NCBI GenBank assembly: GCA_963849325.1
Contig: CAWKHF010000001.1
Location: 352,001-416,000 of the forward strand
From: an uncultured Planctomycetota bacterium
GTDB lineage: Bacteria; Planctomycetota; Planctomycetia; Gemmatales; Gemmataceae
Reading direction: 5' to 3'
Length of the DNA: 64,000 nt
Of the stretch, positions 9,763 through 63,467 are shown in pieces (positions within the stretch are counted from its first letter, which is position 1; every line of letters begins with the position of its first letter). Position numbers and translations under genes: made by a program. The notes under the pieces were generated by a model. It was given only the letters and a program-made list of their open reading frames with translations, did no database searches and was not told the origin of the DNA.

Positions 9763-9879
9763 CAGATTTGGATTGTCGTCCCATCCATTTTCTCCTTGCC
9801 GTTCTTGCCCGGGCGCGGGATCATCGAAGCGTGTCCGGGATGGATGACCCGGTTGACGGCTCGCGCGTCTGGATCTTCG

Positions 9880-10464
9880 ATGAACACGACCTCGCTCAGC
9901 TTGCTCGATCGCCTCAAGCGTGCCCGGCCGGATTCCACGGAATGGCACAAGCTCCAGGACATCTATCTGCCGTTGATCCGCCACTGGTTGTCACGCCTAC
10001 CCGGATTGCACGATGAGATGGAGGATCTGACTCAGGAGGTGCTCGTCGTCCTCTTCCGCGAACTGCCGTCGTTCGAGCATCGTTTCCACGGTGCGTTCCG
10101 CGCCTGGCTGCGCCAGATCGCGGTCAACCGGACGAGAGCCTTTCTCAAGGCCAGGGGAAGGCGTCCCACGGCGGGCGCCGGCGCGGAGACCGACCGGCTC
10201 CTCGCCCAGCTGGAAGATGCCAACAGCGAGTTGGCCCGGCAGTGGGACCGCGACCACGACAAGCACGTCATCGACAAACTGCTCGCCGTCGTCCAGGTGG
10301 ACTTCGAGGCCAATACCTGGCAGGCGTTCACGCGCTTCGCCCTGGACGGCCAGCCGGCCGCGCGCGTGGCCGAGGAATTGGGCATGACGGAAAGCGCCGT
10401 CATCAAGGCCAAGTCCCGAATCCTCAAACGCTTGCGCGAAGAGGCCGGAGCATTGTTGGACTGA
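9880..10464 (+). CDS. ECF RNA polymerase sigma factor
   Basis: TTSLSLLDRLK, EDLTQEV, FRAWLRQIAVN, VAEELGMTESAVIKAKSRILKRLR. Confidence 0.92.
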   Translation: MNTTSLSLLDRLKRARPDSTEWHKLQDIYLPLIRHWLSRLPGLHDEMEDLTQEVLVVLFRELPSFEHRFHGAFRAWLRQIAVNRTRAFLKARGRRPTAGAGAETDRLLAQLEDANSELARQWDRDHDKHVIDKLLAVVQVDFEANTWQAFTRFALDGQPAARVAEELGMTESAVIKAKSRILKRLREEAGALLD

Positions 10465-10570
10465 GCGCACCTTTTCGCGTCCGGTCGGCTCGACATGCGG
10501 ACTTTCTCTTGGGAGGGCCGCGCGGACAACGCGCCGGCCGCGTCGATTGGTTGCCACGAAGGAGCCTGCG

Positions 10571-13395
10571 ATGGAAGCACGTCCCGTCACGCACCCGTCC
10601 GCCGACGCCCTGCAGGCGTTCGGCCTGGGCCAAATGGACGATGCCGCCGCCTCGGGGATCATGAGCCATCTGGACAGCTGCCCCCAATGCCGCCAGGCGG
10701 TGGCGTCCTTGTCCGGCGACGACTTTCTCCATCGGCTCCGTCAGGCGCGCACTCCGAGCGCCACGCCGGCGCCCGCCAAAGCCCTGTCCCCCTCGGTCGC
10801 CCCCGGCGCCAAGCCGCCCGGCCGGCCGACCACTCTGCACAACTTGCCGCCCGAATTGGCCGAGCATCCGCAGTATGACGTCCTCCGCGAACTGGGACGC
10901 GGCGGCATGGGCGTCGTCTACCTGGCCAAGAACAAGATGATGGACCGCCTGGAAGTACTCAAGGTGGTCAACAAGACGTTGATCGATCGACCCGGCGCCG
11001 TCGAGCGCTTCCTGCGCGAAATCCGCTCGGCGGCCAAGATCAATCACGTCAACGTCGTCACCGCCTACAGCGTCTTGCAACAGGGCGAAGTGCTGGCCTT
11101 CGCCATGGAGTACGTGGAGGGCGAGGATCTCGCCGCGCTGGTGAAATCGCGCGGCCCGCTGCCGATGCCGTACGCTTGCTACTACATCCAGCAAGCGGCC
11201 TTCGGCTTGCAGCACGCTTTCGAGAAGGGCATGGTCCACCGCGACATCAAGCCGCAAAACCTGATCCTGGCCCGCGAGGGCAACAAACACGTCGTCAAGA
11301 TACTCGACTTCGGCCTGGCCAAGGCCACGCGCGAGAAGGCCGACGACACCGGACTGACCGGCGAGGGTCAGATGCTGGGCACGCCCGATTACATCGCTCC
11401 GGAGCAGATGCTGGACGCGGCCAAGGCCGACATCCGCGCCGACATCTACAGCCTGGGCTGTACGTTGTACTATCTGCTGGCCGGTCGTCCGCCCTTCCGC
11501 GGATCGAGTTTGGGGGCGGTGTTGATGGCTCATCAGACGCAGGAGGCCAAGCCGCTGAATTCGCTTCGTGCCGAGGTGCCGGAAGAGTTGACGGCGGTGG
11601 TGCGCAAGATGATGGCCAAGACGCTGGCCCAGCGCTATCAGACGCCGATGGAGGTGGTGCAGGCGCTCCGTCCGTTCGTCAAGCAAGGGCCGCCCGCGGC
11701 GAAGTCGAAGTCGTCGCCGGAGGAGGCGGCCGGGGTGCCGGCCGCGAAGCCGGCGATCCGGAAAGTCGCGCGCGGCGAGCGCTCGATTGCGCCAACAAGG
11801 GCGGATGGACCGGAAGCGCAGCCGGCCGAGGCCTCCTGGGAAGCGCTGACGGAGGGCGGCATCATCTCCGGCGCATCGCGGCGAAGTGCGGCGGCACGCG
11901 GACGCCGGCCGCCGGCGTCGTGGAAGAAATGGTCGATCGGCGGCGGCATCGGCGTCTTTCTTCTCGTGCTGTTGGGCATGTGGGCCAGCGGCGTGTTCCG
12001 AGTGAAGACGGCGAACGGCACGATTGTGCTGGAGAACGTGCCGGCCGACGCTGAGGTGCTGGTGGACGGCGCGACGGTGACGCTCCAGGCCGGCGATGGC
12101 AAGACCGTCACGGTCGCCGTCGCGCGGGGAAAAAGCACCAATTGCAGGTGAAAAAGGAGGGGTTCAAGGTCTTCGGCCAGGAAGTGCAAATCGACGCCGG
12201 CAGCCGTGTACCTATCCGCGTGACTTTGCAGCCGGCGTCCCCGCCGCCCGGAAAGCCGCAGCCTCCGGCCCCCCAGCGCGCGACGGAAGACAAGGGCTTC
12301 GTGTCGCTGTTCAACGGCAAGGACCTGACGGGGTGGAAAGCCCATCCGGAGGCGGCGGGTGACTGGAAGGTGGAGAACGGTATTCTCATTGGCCGCGGCC
12401 CGAAAGTGAGCCACCTCTACAGCCAGCGGGACGACTATGCGGATTTCCATCTTCTGGTGGAGGCGAAGATCAATCAGGGGGGAAACAGCGGCGTCCTTTT
12501 CCACAAGGCATTTACTCCGGACTGGACGCGCGGCTACGAGGCCCAGATTGATAGCAGCAGCCACAAGTTCAAGACCGGCACCCTCTACGTCAAGGCAGCG
12601 CCCGGTGTCGGGATTGAGAAAGTGCTGGTCCCGGTCGATACCTGGTTCACCCAGGAAGTGATCGTCCAGGGGAACCACATTCTCCTCAAGATTGACGGGG
12701 TGACGACGGTGGATTTCGTTGACGCGGACAATACCTGGCCCAGCGGCCACATCGCCCTGCAAGTGTTTGACAAACCGACCGTTGTCCAATTCCGTCGCGT
12801 TGAGATCAAGGAACTGTCGCCTTCCGCTCCGAGCGCGACGGGCTTCGTCCCCTTGTTCAACGGCAAGGATCTGACCGGCTGGAAGACGCATCTCACGCAG
12901 CCGGGCAACTGGCGCGTCGAGAAGGGCGTTCTCCTCGGTTCCGGTCCCGCCGACAGTTATCTCTACACGGATCGCGGTGATTACAAGGACTTTCACTTGC
13001 GCGTCGAAACGCGGATCAACGACGGCGGCAACAGCGGCGTATGCTTCCGTACTCTGTTCGGCCCTTGGTTCCCCGCGGACAATCCGCGGTTTCTTCTCGG
13101 TTACGAGGCCCAGATCAACAGCACGCACACAGACCACTTTAAGACCGGAAGCTTGTATGCGTTACCAGGTGGCGTCCTGGTCAGCAACCGCGAAGCGCCG
13201 ACTCGGCCCGGCGAGTGGTTCACGTTGGAGGTGATCGCGGAGGGAAACCACATCGTCCTCAAGGTGGATGGCAAGACGACGGTGGACTACACGGACGAGA
13301 AGCGGTTGTACAGCAGCGGCCACATCGCCTTGCAGCAGTTTGAACCGCAGACGGTGGCGGAGTTCCGCAAGATCGAGATCGAGGAACGGAAGTAG
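10571..13395 (+). CDS. Ser/Thr protein kinase with N-terminal zinc-finger anti-sigma-like motif, TM helix and two DUF1080 domains (frameshift near 12130)
   Basis: HLDSCPQC; LGRGGMGVVY, HRDIKPQN, DFGLAK, GTPDYIAPEQ; TM IGGGIGVFLLVLL; two LFNGKDLTGWK...GNSGV...GHIALQ repeats in ORF 12142..13395. Confidence 0.88.
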
Positions 13396-13514
13396 GCGAC
13401 GCCTTGGCGGTACGAACGGACACAGACCCGAGGAGTCTTCGGTGTCCACCGACTACGACAGCTCGTGGGCGGCGGTTATGGGCGACGGGAGCCTCGTGAA
13501 TCCGTTCGGCGCGC

Positions 13515-13551
13515 AAAAATATATCCGGCGCTCCCTTGCGGGAGCGCCGGA
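13515..13551 (-). terminator. Intrinsic terminator downstream of c-di-GMP riboswitch 1
   Basis: Minus strand TCCGGCGCTCCC-GCAA-GGGAGCGCCGGA then TATATTTTT; 12-bp perfect stem. Confidence 0.75.
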
Positions 13552-13576
13552 CGACCAGACATACTTACGGGTCCCG

Positions 13577-13685
13577 TCCATCCCTTCGGTAGCCTGGCAG
13601 CCTTAAACCGTCCCCCCTCGGACGGTGTAAGAGCCCATAGCTTTGCGTCCCCGCCTCACGACGGGTTTGCCTTTATCGAGGACGG
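13577..13685 (-). ncRNA. Cyclic di-GMP-I (GEMM) riboswitch aptamer
   Basis: Minus strand CCGTCCTCGATAAAGGCAAACCCGTC-GTGA-GGCGGGGACGCAAAGCTATGGG...GCCAGGCTACCGAAGGGATGG; GGCAAA and GGACGCAAAGC cores, GNRA loop, P1 closes. Confidence 0.9.
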
Positions 13686-13752
13686 CCTAGGTGTCGCCGC
13701 CACTCTTTTCCTTGCGGCCGGTCGATTCGTTACATCAACCGGCCACACCCCA

Positions 13753-13781
13753 ACTGTAGAACGCTTTTTCCGATTGTGCAA
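13753..13781 (-). promoter_or_regulatory. Sigma70-type promoter feeding riboswitch 1
   Basis: Minus strand TTGCAC (13781-13776), 17 nt, TACAGT (13758-13753). Confidence 0.55.
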
Positions 13782-13989
13782 GCGAGGATGGATTTTTTTT
13801 GCCCACCGAGTTTGTCGATCACAATACGGATCCTGTAGGAGGAACGCCTCGGCCGGCTCCGGCACGAGGGCCGAAGCCGATTTCGATGCGGATCGGGAAA
13901 TCCTCTCGCTTTCGCCGTTGCGTTCCGTCTTGTGTCTGGGCGTTTGCCGGGCTAAGGTGGCCATTGGCCCGTTTGCCTGGAGAAGTACC

Positions 13990-14298
13990 ATGACGGCGTC
14001 TGCCTCCTACAAATACCTCGAGCCGAAAAAGAACTCCAACTATCGTCAGTTGTTTGTCTTGGGCCGTATTCGCGCCGAGGTGCTTTACCGCGAAACCATC
14101 GGCCGAGAGCCGCTCACCCCCGAGGAAGTCGCCCGCGAATACGGCCTGCCGGTCGAGGCCGTTCAGGAGGCGATTGACTACGGCACTCGGCACGCCAACC
14201 TCCTGGATGAAGAACGCGCCCGCGAAGAAGCGTGGATTCGAGCCAGCGGACACGACCGCTGGCCTTACGCCCCGCGCAACCATCCGCCGCAACCATGA
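13990..14298 (+). CDS. DUF433-like antitoxin
   Basis: GRIRAEVLYRE...TPEEVAREYGLPVEAVQEAIDY; ATGA overlap with PIN gene. Confidence 0.75.
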   Translation: MTASASYKYLEPKKNSNYRQLFVLGRIRAEVLYRETIGREPLTPEEVAREYGLPVEAVQEAIDYGTRHANLLDEERAREEAWIRASGHDRWPYAPRNHPPQP

Positions 14299-62741: not shown

Positions 62742-62927
62742 TCAGCTGCTGGTCGCGCCGACCTGCGTGCTGACATAGCTGAAAGTGTTGTTGGCGTTGC
62801 TGCCCAGCGTGGTGATGGCGGTGATGCACACCACGATAATCAGGGCCAGCATGACGGCATACTCGACCGCCGTCGGGCCGTCCTCGTTCTGCAAGAAACT
62901 CACCAGACCGTTCGCAAACTTACGCAT
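62742..62927 (-). CDS. flp: Flp type IVb pilin, copy 2
   Basis: Mature part differs by one residue (VGATSS). Confidence 0.95.
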   Translation of the reverse strand: MRKFANGLVSFLQNEDGPTAVEYAVMLALIIVVCITAITTLGSNANNTFSYVSTQVGATSS

Positions 62928-63024: not shown

Positions 63025-63216
63025 TCAGGAACTCTTGGCGCCGGCAGCGGCGTTGAGGGCGACGTTGCTGAACGTGCCGTTGGCGTTGCTGCCCAGCGTG
63101 GTGATGGCCGTGATGCATACCACGATGATCAGGGCCAGCATGACGGCGTACTCGACCGCCGTCGGGCCGTCCTCGTCGCGCAGGAATTGTTTCGTCCTGG
63201 CGATCCACTTGTTCAT
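63025..63216 (-). CDS. flp: Flp type IVb pilin, copy 1 (divergent C-terminus)
   Basis: DEDG^PTAVEY...NANGTFSNVALNAAAGAKSS. Confidence 0.95.
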   Translation of the reverse strand: MNKWIARTKQFLRDEDGPTAVEYAVMLALIIVVCITAITTLGSNANGTFSNVALNAAAGAKSS

Positions 63217-63376: not shown

Positions 63377-63467
63377 CCTCATCCCTTCGGGAGCCTGGCG
63401 ACCCGCGAGGGGCCCATGGCTTTGCGTCCCCGCCTCGCGACGGGTTTGCCGGTATCGAGGATGAAGA
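63377..63467 (-). ncRNA. Cyclic di-GMP-I (GEMM) riboswitch upstream of the flp/tad operon
   Basis: Minus strand CTTCATCCTCGATACCGGCAAACCCGTC-GCGA-GGCGGGGACGCAAAGCCATGGGCCCC...GCCAGGCTCCCGAAGGGATGAGG. Confidence 0.92.

Follow-up and report, generated by a model that had tools for sequence, protein, structure and literature searches.

What is a riboswitch for when no gene follows it? The question is raised by a 64,000-nt stretch of DNA from an uncultured planctomycete of the family Gemmataceae (assembly GCA_963849325.1, contig CAWKHF010000001.1, positions 352,001 to 416,000; hereafter the window), whose minus strand carries, from 13781 to 13515, a promoter-like site, a cyclic di-GMP (c-di-GMP)-I riboswitch aptamer and a terminator. 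Neither the list of open reading frames (ORFs) nor Pfam revealed a same-strand gene after this terminator in the window genome. A preliminary description of the locus had offered three explanations: a stand-alone small RNA (sRNA) or ligand sink, c-di-GMP-gated antisense transcription into the neighbouring operon, or a relic left behind by gene loss. Our analysis suggests that the unit is probably a conserved stand-alone riboswitch RNA present across many Gemmataceae, acting as a free-standing signal sensor rather than as an ordinary gene switch. Riboswitches are usually defined by the genes they control; a gene-less riboswitch RNA distributed through a family shows that aptamers are also used in free-standing regulatory RNAs.

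Conservation of the unit and of its surroundings

BLAST with the 594-nt intergenic region found matches in 161 of 201 family genomes. The 19 best-matching genomes besides that of the window, which together with the window locus make up the 20-locus set used below, show 85.6-95.0% identity to the window unit between aptamer and terminator, over 167-194 nt. The alignment of the 20 loci is conserved from the A-tract and the -35 box through the aptamer and linker to the T-run, and shows no conservation beyond it. A 29-nt core, searched with up to two mismatches, is present in 143 of 252 family genomes (81 of the 135 high-quality ones) and in 63 of 90 genera, and its reversed control gave 0 matches. 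The core is mostly found once per genome, as in the window genome, with two to three copies in a few genomes; when 300 Planctomycetota genomes from 98 other families were searched with up to three mismatches, none contained it. At the 3′ end, a hairpin of at least 9 bp (median 12-13 bp, ~-25 kcal/mol) followed by a U-run closes 107 of 111 homologous units, and the 91 distinct terminator hairpin sequences among these units reveal a stem whose sequence changes while its pairing is kept.

The genes downstream of the unit are unrelated to one another. When ORFs were called in the 1.5 kb flanking the unit at the 20 loci and 108 of them were scanned against Pfam, the nearest Pfam-supported downstream gene was convergent at 11 loci, on the same strand at six and unresolved at three. 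The convergent genes encode a DUF1080 protein, a LOG protein (lysine-decarboxylase-like, PF03641), an IS110 transposase, a DUF2330 protein, an arginine decarboxylase, Hsp70, a fructose-bisphosphatase, a WD40 protein, an FAA hydrolase, a GNAT protein, and a 23S-IVS protein followed by another LOG. The same-strand genes encode six different proteins (ECF sigma-WD40, sigma-70 region 4, kinase, molybdopterin oxidoreductase, PLD-like and PSCyt1/2), two of them of the sigma-70 family. No downstream family recurs beyond close relatives among these 20 loci as judged by Pfam, and for this reason we take the unit to be a gene of its own, which would not control a neighbouring gene. The arrangement that marks a cis element, namely the 5′ leader of a controlled gene, was found neither in the window genome nor as a conserved layout in the 20 loci. 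The idea of a stand-alone sRNA is thus supported by conservation from promoter to terminator in many genera, by the end of that conservation at the T-run, and by downstream genes that are unrelated and mostly convergent. A sigma-like gene lies within ~6 kb of the unit at five of 21 loci, compared with ~2.1 expected; we do not accept a sigma-factor neighbourhood link, because the queries were taken from those loci and two pairs among the five loci each belong to a single genus.

Aptamer identity and layout of the RNA

The preliminary description recognised a complete c-di-GMP-I aptamer, and covariance models agree. cmscan places it at 13680-13584 on the minus strand with 71 bits against RF03167 (gathering threshold 59, E 8e-15), and a search of the genome gives 65 bits against RF01051 (gathering threshold 35, E 5.6e-12) over model positions 1-87 of 87. 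The genome holds five aptamers, all of which pass both models. The two consensus lines differ at one conserved junction position, GACGCGAAG in RF03167 and GACGCAAAG in RF01051. The window core, GACGCAAAGC, agrees with the RF01051 consensus and has A at the discriminating position, where RF03167 has G; we therefore read the RNA as a canonical c-di-GMP-I aptamer that would bind c-di-GMP, and treating this position as the definition of the GGC variant is our reading of the two consensus lines.

With its extended P1, in which CGUCCUCG pairs with CG-AA-GGGAUG, the aptamer occupies 13579-13684 (cmscan and RNAalifold). The P2 loop is a GUGA tetraloop in the window RNA and GUGA or GCGA (GNRA) among 66 aligned sequences, and P3 bears a distal hairpin with the loop GAGGGG. 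This hairpin had been regarded as an extra element, an interpretation we abandon: it is the distal P3 hairpin within the canonical RF01051 model, and it is the RF03167 model that is without one. RNAalifold on the 66 sequences recovers P1, P2 and P3, and pairing is kept through two-sided changes in 13 of 39 predicted pairs, a count that includes platform and terminator-region pairs. Immediately 3′ of the ligand pocket lies a 21-mer, CCGAAGGGATGGACGGGACCC (13569-13589), made up of the P1 3′ strand and the following linker. Below, type 1 denotes units in which this 21-mer stands with a c-di-GMP aptamer as the 5′ half, and type 2 denotes those in which the 3′ module is joined to a different 5′ domain.

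The RNA gene would extend from about 13746 to 13515 on the minus strand, with both transcript ends placed from sequence features; the resulting length of ~232 nt fits the earlier estimate of ~230 nt. Transcription may start near 13746, within a conserved GTGTG, downstream of a promoter-like site (13753-13781) that comprises TTGCAC at 13781-13776, a 17-nt spacer and TACAGT at 13758-13753. This site was already noticed in the window, and its homologues support it: the 20-locus alignment conserves both TTGCA and TAnnnT, and of the 66 type 1 units 59 have TTG[CA]N-N16-19-TAnnnT at the matching place, where shuffled sequences would give 2.0. A consensus promoter scan of the unit returned 0 sites because TTGCAC shares only three of six positions with TTGACA. 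Upstream of the -35 box lies an A-tract (13793-13800), possibly an UP element, and 44 of the 66 type 1 units have an A/T tract of at least four within 30 nt upstream of the promoter-like site. Two 5′ hairpins appear in the minimum free energy (MFE) fold. The first (13716-13744) is variable in sequence between genomes. The second (13681-13701, GGCGGC/GCCGTC) shows its GACGG...CCGTC pairing in the 20-locus alignment and, since it overlaps the P1 5′ strand, could compete with P1. The predicted intrinsic terminator (13515-13552) has a stem and GCAA loop at 13552-13523, with 10 of 13 pairs G-C, then ATATTTTTGC, with the T-run at 13519-13515; the terminator of the preliminary description is present, with a stem of 13 bp instead of 12.

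An invariant 3′ module shared with aptamer-less RNAs

Conservation within the RNA peaks not in the ligand pocket but in the 21-mer (P1 3′ strand and linker), which we propose as an effector motif. It is invariant in all 66 rows of alignment A1, whose rows were gathered by exact 21-mer match, and its conservation is checked independently by the BLAST search (161 of 201 genomes) and by the 29-nt core searched with mismatches (143 of 252). Exact copies occur in at least 119 stretches of a species-level genome collection. Among the matches listed, the records are labelled mostly Gemmataceae, Gemmata, Fimbriiglobus, Limnoglobus and Urbifossiella, and 121 distinct full-length contexts comprise 66 of type 1, 45 of type 2 and 10 that are coding. 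The coding contexts, in 10 loci of other phyla (for example L035, L102 and L106), read PKGWTGP in our own translation and are presumably phosphoketolase genes; the identity with the 21-mer is probably a coincidence.

The 3′ module consists of the distal P3 hairpin (loop GAGGGG), the P3 3′ strand, the 21-mer, GUAAGUA and the terminator, and in type 2 RNAs it exists without the aptamer. No Rfam family matched any of eight type 2 loci at E up to 1, and in 22 of the 45 type 2 RNAs a covarying 9-bp stem, built of many pair types, is capped by a conserved CAGUUUUUGUG loop. The 5′ domain of type 2 may represent an RNA family or aptamer not yet described. In the BLAST search with the intergenic region, the match is confined to the 3′ module (query 353-436) in some genera and runs from aptamer to terminator in others, which suggests that types 1 and 2 substitute for one another from lineage to lineage. 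Type 2 loci (L026 to L144 in our numbering) include L039 in Limnoglobus roseus PX52 (NZ_CP042425.1, ~526.4 kb) and L052 in Gemmata algarum JC673, so natural aptamer-less counterparts are available in cultured organisms. Two type 1 units, L040 and L041, stand in tandem on one strand of OY969623.1 (~5,195,900 and 5,197,000), ~1.1 kb apart, and this complete genome holds a third, diverged copy of the unit elsewhere.

It is conceivable, and we advance it tentatively as something we would not yet bet on, that these RNAs form a modular riboregulator family in Gemmataceae, in which an invariant, trans-acting 3′ effector hairpin (loop AUGGACGGGA within CCGAAGGGAUGGACGGGACCC) is combined with interchangeable 5′ sensors, namely the c-di-GMP aptamer or the type 2 domain, the latter perhaps an aptamer for another signal. 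If so, what looks like an expression platform would serve to bind a partner in trans instead of controlling a gene.

A proposed two-state model for the stand-alone RNA

In type 1 RNAs the P1 5′ strand C[G/A]UCCUCG pairs with CG-AA-GGGAUG, and the first half of the 21-mer is therefore buried in P1. An alternative pairing, which we call the H-link, joins GCCAGGC of the P3 3′ strand with GUCUGGU in the window (GYYUGGY in the family) and GGG with CCC, giving a hairpin at 13554-13598 whose loop is AUGGACGGGA. The H-link and the folded aptamer are mutually exclusive. The H-link is present in the MFE fold of the window RNA and in the RNAalifold consensus fold of the type 2 RNAs, there alongside a short P3-like stem, and 98.9% of its cells are paired in the 66 type 1 sequences, compared with 8.6-50.6% for slid partners. 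For the 49 type 1 RNAs out of 66 that could be parsed, constraining the fold to hold the aptamer costs a median of 7.7 kcal/mol relative to the MFE (range 1.0-19.1). We consider this gap small enough for a high-affinity ligand to pay; a dissociation constant of ~1 nM is cited in PMC3627812. The terminator is untouched by either fold, and the sole candidate anti-terminator, GYYUGG/CCRGSC, has six pairs, two to three of them G-U.

We propose a model in which, in the absence of c-di-GMP, GCCAGGC would pair with GYYUGGY ahead of the terminator, so that the H-link displays the loop AUGGACGGGA. On binding of c-di-GMP, P3 would take up GCCAGGC and P1 would take up CGAAGGGAUG, dissolving the H-link and burying half of the motif. 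The terminator would be constitutive and, because it would form in both states, the output of the switch would be the presentation of the invariant 3′ module to a partner in trans, either protein or RNA; c-di-GMP would alter this presentation and not the stop of transcription. Taken as a whole, namely an independent sRNA gene of ~232 nt with promoter, two 5′ hairpins, aptamer, invariant linker and constitutive terminator, in which c-di-GMP refolds a trans-acting 3′ hairpin, this is the account we lean towards, by a modest degree. Were the refolding to operate in this way, c-di-GMP would directly control a trans-acting RNA module, a new output route in planctomycetes.

Several points weigh against this account. 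Covariation of the H-link amounts to one two-sided pair change, which 24 of 500 shuffles also attain; with so little variation in its columns, the data agree with the helix but do not prove it. Of the 49 type 1 RNAs that were parsed, only 22 include the H-link in their MFE fold. Invariance of the 21-mer is partly a matter of construction in sets gathered by exact match, and the genomes of one family are related, so that the counts given above are not independent events. No candidate partner emerged when GGA enrichment and complementary genome sites were examined. Finally, the case for the transcript start and end, for ligand binding, for the two-state switch and for action in trans is indirect.

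Candidate partners in trans

GGA motifs number 7.92 per type 1 RNA against 6.88 in dinucleotide shuffles, and 6.29 against 5.72 per type 2 RNA. The pattern of CsrB/RsmZ-type RNAs, with many GGA motifs mostly in hairpin loops, was not found in them. The invariant linker contains three GGA and matches seven contiguous positions (ARGGAUG) of RUACARGGAUGU, the 12-nt CsrA consensus from in vitro selection (SELEX) given in PMC7652899, and it is without the ACA. Nine CsrA-domain matches (PF02599) exceed the cut-off in the genome, some of them inside open frames of 310-333 aa. Whether one of these nine CsrA-family proteins is the partner of a modular 3′ effector is speculation, and we do not retain a CsrA sponge, as GGA is not enriched beyond the invariant linker. 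A match to Hfq was not found in the assembly, which is 84.7% complete, so that its absence is not thereby shown.

Base-pairing targets were likewise rejected. Sites with at least 11 nt of perfect complement to the 33-nt linker number 69 in the genome, including the gene itself, against ~90 naively expected, and are thus no commoner than chance would give. The longest, of 17 nt, lies at contig C5:1119691, antisense of a coding stretch that we take to be phosphoketolase by its likeness to the PKGWTGP contexts; in that case the mRNA would be identical, not complementary, to the linker.

Two further c-di-GMP-I aptamers lie 1.1 kb apart on the minus strand of contig C9, at 335442-335528 and 336556-336641 (loci L001 and L004). 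They share ~110 nt of 3′ sequence that starts with an 11-12-nt complement of the invariant linker, and a NUMOD4 + HNH_3 endonuclease gene (L001:618-1148, minus strand) stands between them. Neither a group I intron nor any other Rfam family was found near the two. These leaders were considered as a conserved trans target and set aside, as the leader pattern occurs in only two of 131 family genomes.

Alternative explanations

The alternative that survives best is that the RNA serves as a c-di-GMP sponge or buffer, binding and releasing its ligand and nothing else, with the 3′ part present for stability. This explanation fits an aptamer RNA that stands alone and has both a strong promoter-like site and a terminator, and there is a precedent in the Bdellovibrio merRNA, for which such a role is proposed in PMC3627812. 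Contigs from RNA libraries also match the aptamer and linker. Twenty sequencing runs (16 recorded as RNA), each from a different study, contained 7-11% of the sampled words, and four of them gave contigs near-identical to this region, for example over 104 nt with 0 differences (X2). These contigs span only 13556-13690, leaving promoter and terminator uncovered, and are a weak hint, at most, that the RNA is present in RNA libraries, their depth being no measure of expression. A pure sponge does not explain why conservation is highest outside the ligand pocket. Nor does it account for the 45 RNAs, among the matches listed, that retain the 3′ module but have no detectable c-di-GMP aptamer. We thus consider this explanation unlikely; of the stand-alone sRNA or ligand sink put forward in the preliminary description, we retain the sRNA and do not favour the sink.

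Less probable still is a cis-acting ON switch, in which c-di-GMP would release GYYUGG for pairing with CCRGSC at the 5′ base of the terminator and so permit read-through, yielding antisense RNA against the operon of DUF1080, kinase and ECF sigma factor genes in the window, and expression of same-strand genes elsewhere. RNAalifold on the 66 sequences does pair GYYUGG (columns 184-189) with the 5′ arm of the terminator (columns 196-202), which would complete a classical chain of competing helices, and a same-strand gene lies ~100-280 nt downstream at six of the 20 loci. Moreover, c-di-GMP riboswitches are the class most enriched in antisense orientation according to PMC9943018, with 152 antisense against 2,554 sense, and the present RNA resembles these antisense-acting riboswitches in facing a convergent gene. 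However, the anti-terminator would set its six pairs against a terminator stem whose median is 12-13 G+C-rich pairs and ~-25 kcal/mol. Past the T-run nothing is conserved, and the genes that lie downstream are unrelated to one another and convergent at 11 of the 20 loci. In contrast to the antisense-acting riboswitches described in PMC9943018, the 20 loci have no convergent gene in common, and antisense control therefore cannot be a family-wide function. c-di-GMP-gated antisense transcription thus falls as a conserved function, since neighbours differ between loci, although it may still act locally.

A relic, arising by loss or inversion of a controlled gene or by an assembly artefact, is very improbable. 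It would account for the missing gene in the window genome, and a genome of the same genus (L007) does have a same-strand ECF-sigma/WD40 gene after the unit. Nevertheless, the unit retains 86-95% identity in 19 other genomes with promoter, aptamer and terminator intact, it is found in 63 of 90 genera, and its terminator stems covary; conservation from promoter to terminator across genera excludes the relic that the preliminary description had considered. That the RNA is the leader of a small protein gene can be dismissed, since of the two ATG ORFs (42 codons at 13453-13581 and 28 codons at 13476-13562), already regarded as spurious, the ATG at 13581 is indeed preceded by AAGGG, yet both frames cross the terminator and neither is conserved, the frame being closed after six codons in eight of the 20 loci (TAT to TAA) and shifted elsewhere by 1-nt indels in the linker.

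Relation to known riboswitches and regulatory RNAs

The stand-alone sRNA that we favour can be set beside an ordinary riboswitch in the same window. A second aptamer, at 63385-63459 on the minus strand, precedes two Flp/Fap pilin genes (ORFs 63028-63216 and 62745-62927, both minus strand, E 3e-11 each). The likeness of its P1/P2 to the present RNA, remarked upon in the preliminary description, amounts to 92% over 50 nt, and both share the aptamer family and an intrinsic terminator after the aptamer. This aptamer and one at contig C4:413940-414033, whose next ORF resembles a Flp-type pilin by eye, are ordinary cis-acting c-di-GMP riboswitches. The pilin riboswitch, a classical GEMM-I element, has Flp_Fap genes to control, whereas the Gemmataceae RNA has none, and in the latter the platform is more conserved than the aptamer, which is unusual for riboswitch expression platforms.

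Coupling of a ligand-sensing aptamer to a function in trans, instead of to an adjacent gene, is known from other classes. In EutX/Rli55, a B12 riboswitch controls a protein-sequestering sRNA, and termination decides between a short and a long transcript; SreA and SreB are S-adenosylmethionine riboswitches that act in trans. The Gemmataceae RNA would differ from EutX/Rli55 in that its terminator looks constitutive and refolding is proposed to occur within one transcript.

Within the c-di-GMP class, our literature search found merRNA of Bdellovibrio bacteriovorus as the only stand-alone precedent, with a mechanism so far at the stage of a proposal. PMC3627812 describes a 445-nt non-coding RNA with a c-di-GMP-I riboswitch and no conserved downstream ORF, proposed as a c-di-GMP sponge, thought not to be a classical cis regulator and reported only within Bdellovibrio. 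Both RNAs would thus carry a c-di-GMP-I aptamer inside a non-coding RNA that lacks a conserved downstream ORF, the Gemmataceae RNA being described from its sequence and its predicted ends. Compared by description only, they differ in size (445 against ~232 nt) and spread (Bdellovibrio only against 63 of 90 genera), and a further feature of the Gemmataceae RNA is its invariant 3′ module, which other RNAs carry without the aptamer. The system had been put forward as undescribed: merRNA, as portrayed in PMC3627812, is a precedent for the principle, and the conserved Gemmataceae unit with its invariant module is new. The search found no paper linking Gemmata, riboswitch and c-di-GMP, and one (PMC2864571) in which c-di-GMP riboswitches and Planctomycetes are both mentioned. 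With hundreds of homologues, a sharply bounded unit and an invariant motif outside the ligand pocket, the family offers a testable case.

Neighbouring genes

The gene that faces the unit (12142..13395, plus strand) lies outside it and encodes a 417-aa DUF1080/3-keto-disaccharide hydrolase protein (Pfam PF06439, E 6e-84) that holds two such stretches. The distance from the T-run to its stop is ~119 nt, in keeping with the ~120 nt noted before; the convergent gene had been named as the kinase, which is in fact the gene before it. On the other side of the unit, and likewise outside it, the ORF list gives a divergent 102-aa ORF (13990..14298, plus strand), with only a weak Sigma70_r3 match (E 0.0019) below the cut-off. 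The Ser/Thr kinase gene (10547-12151, plus strand) shows a weak, sub-threshold N-terminal match to zf-HC2 (anti-sigma-like), and it is preceded by a gene for an ECF sigma factor (9796-10464, plus strand; Pfam). ECF sigma factor, Ser/Thr kinase and double DUF1080 protein thus form an apparent operon (9796-13395, plus strand) that is convergent with the sRNA gene.

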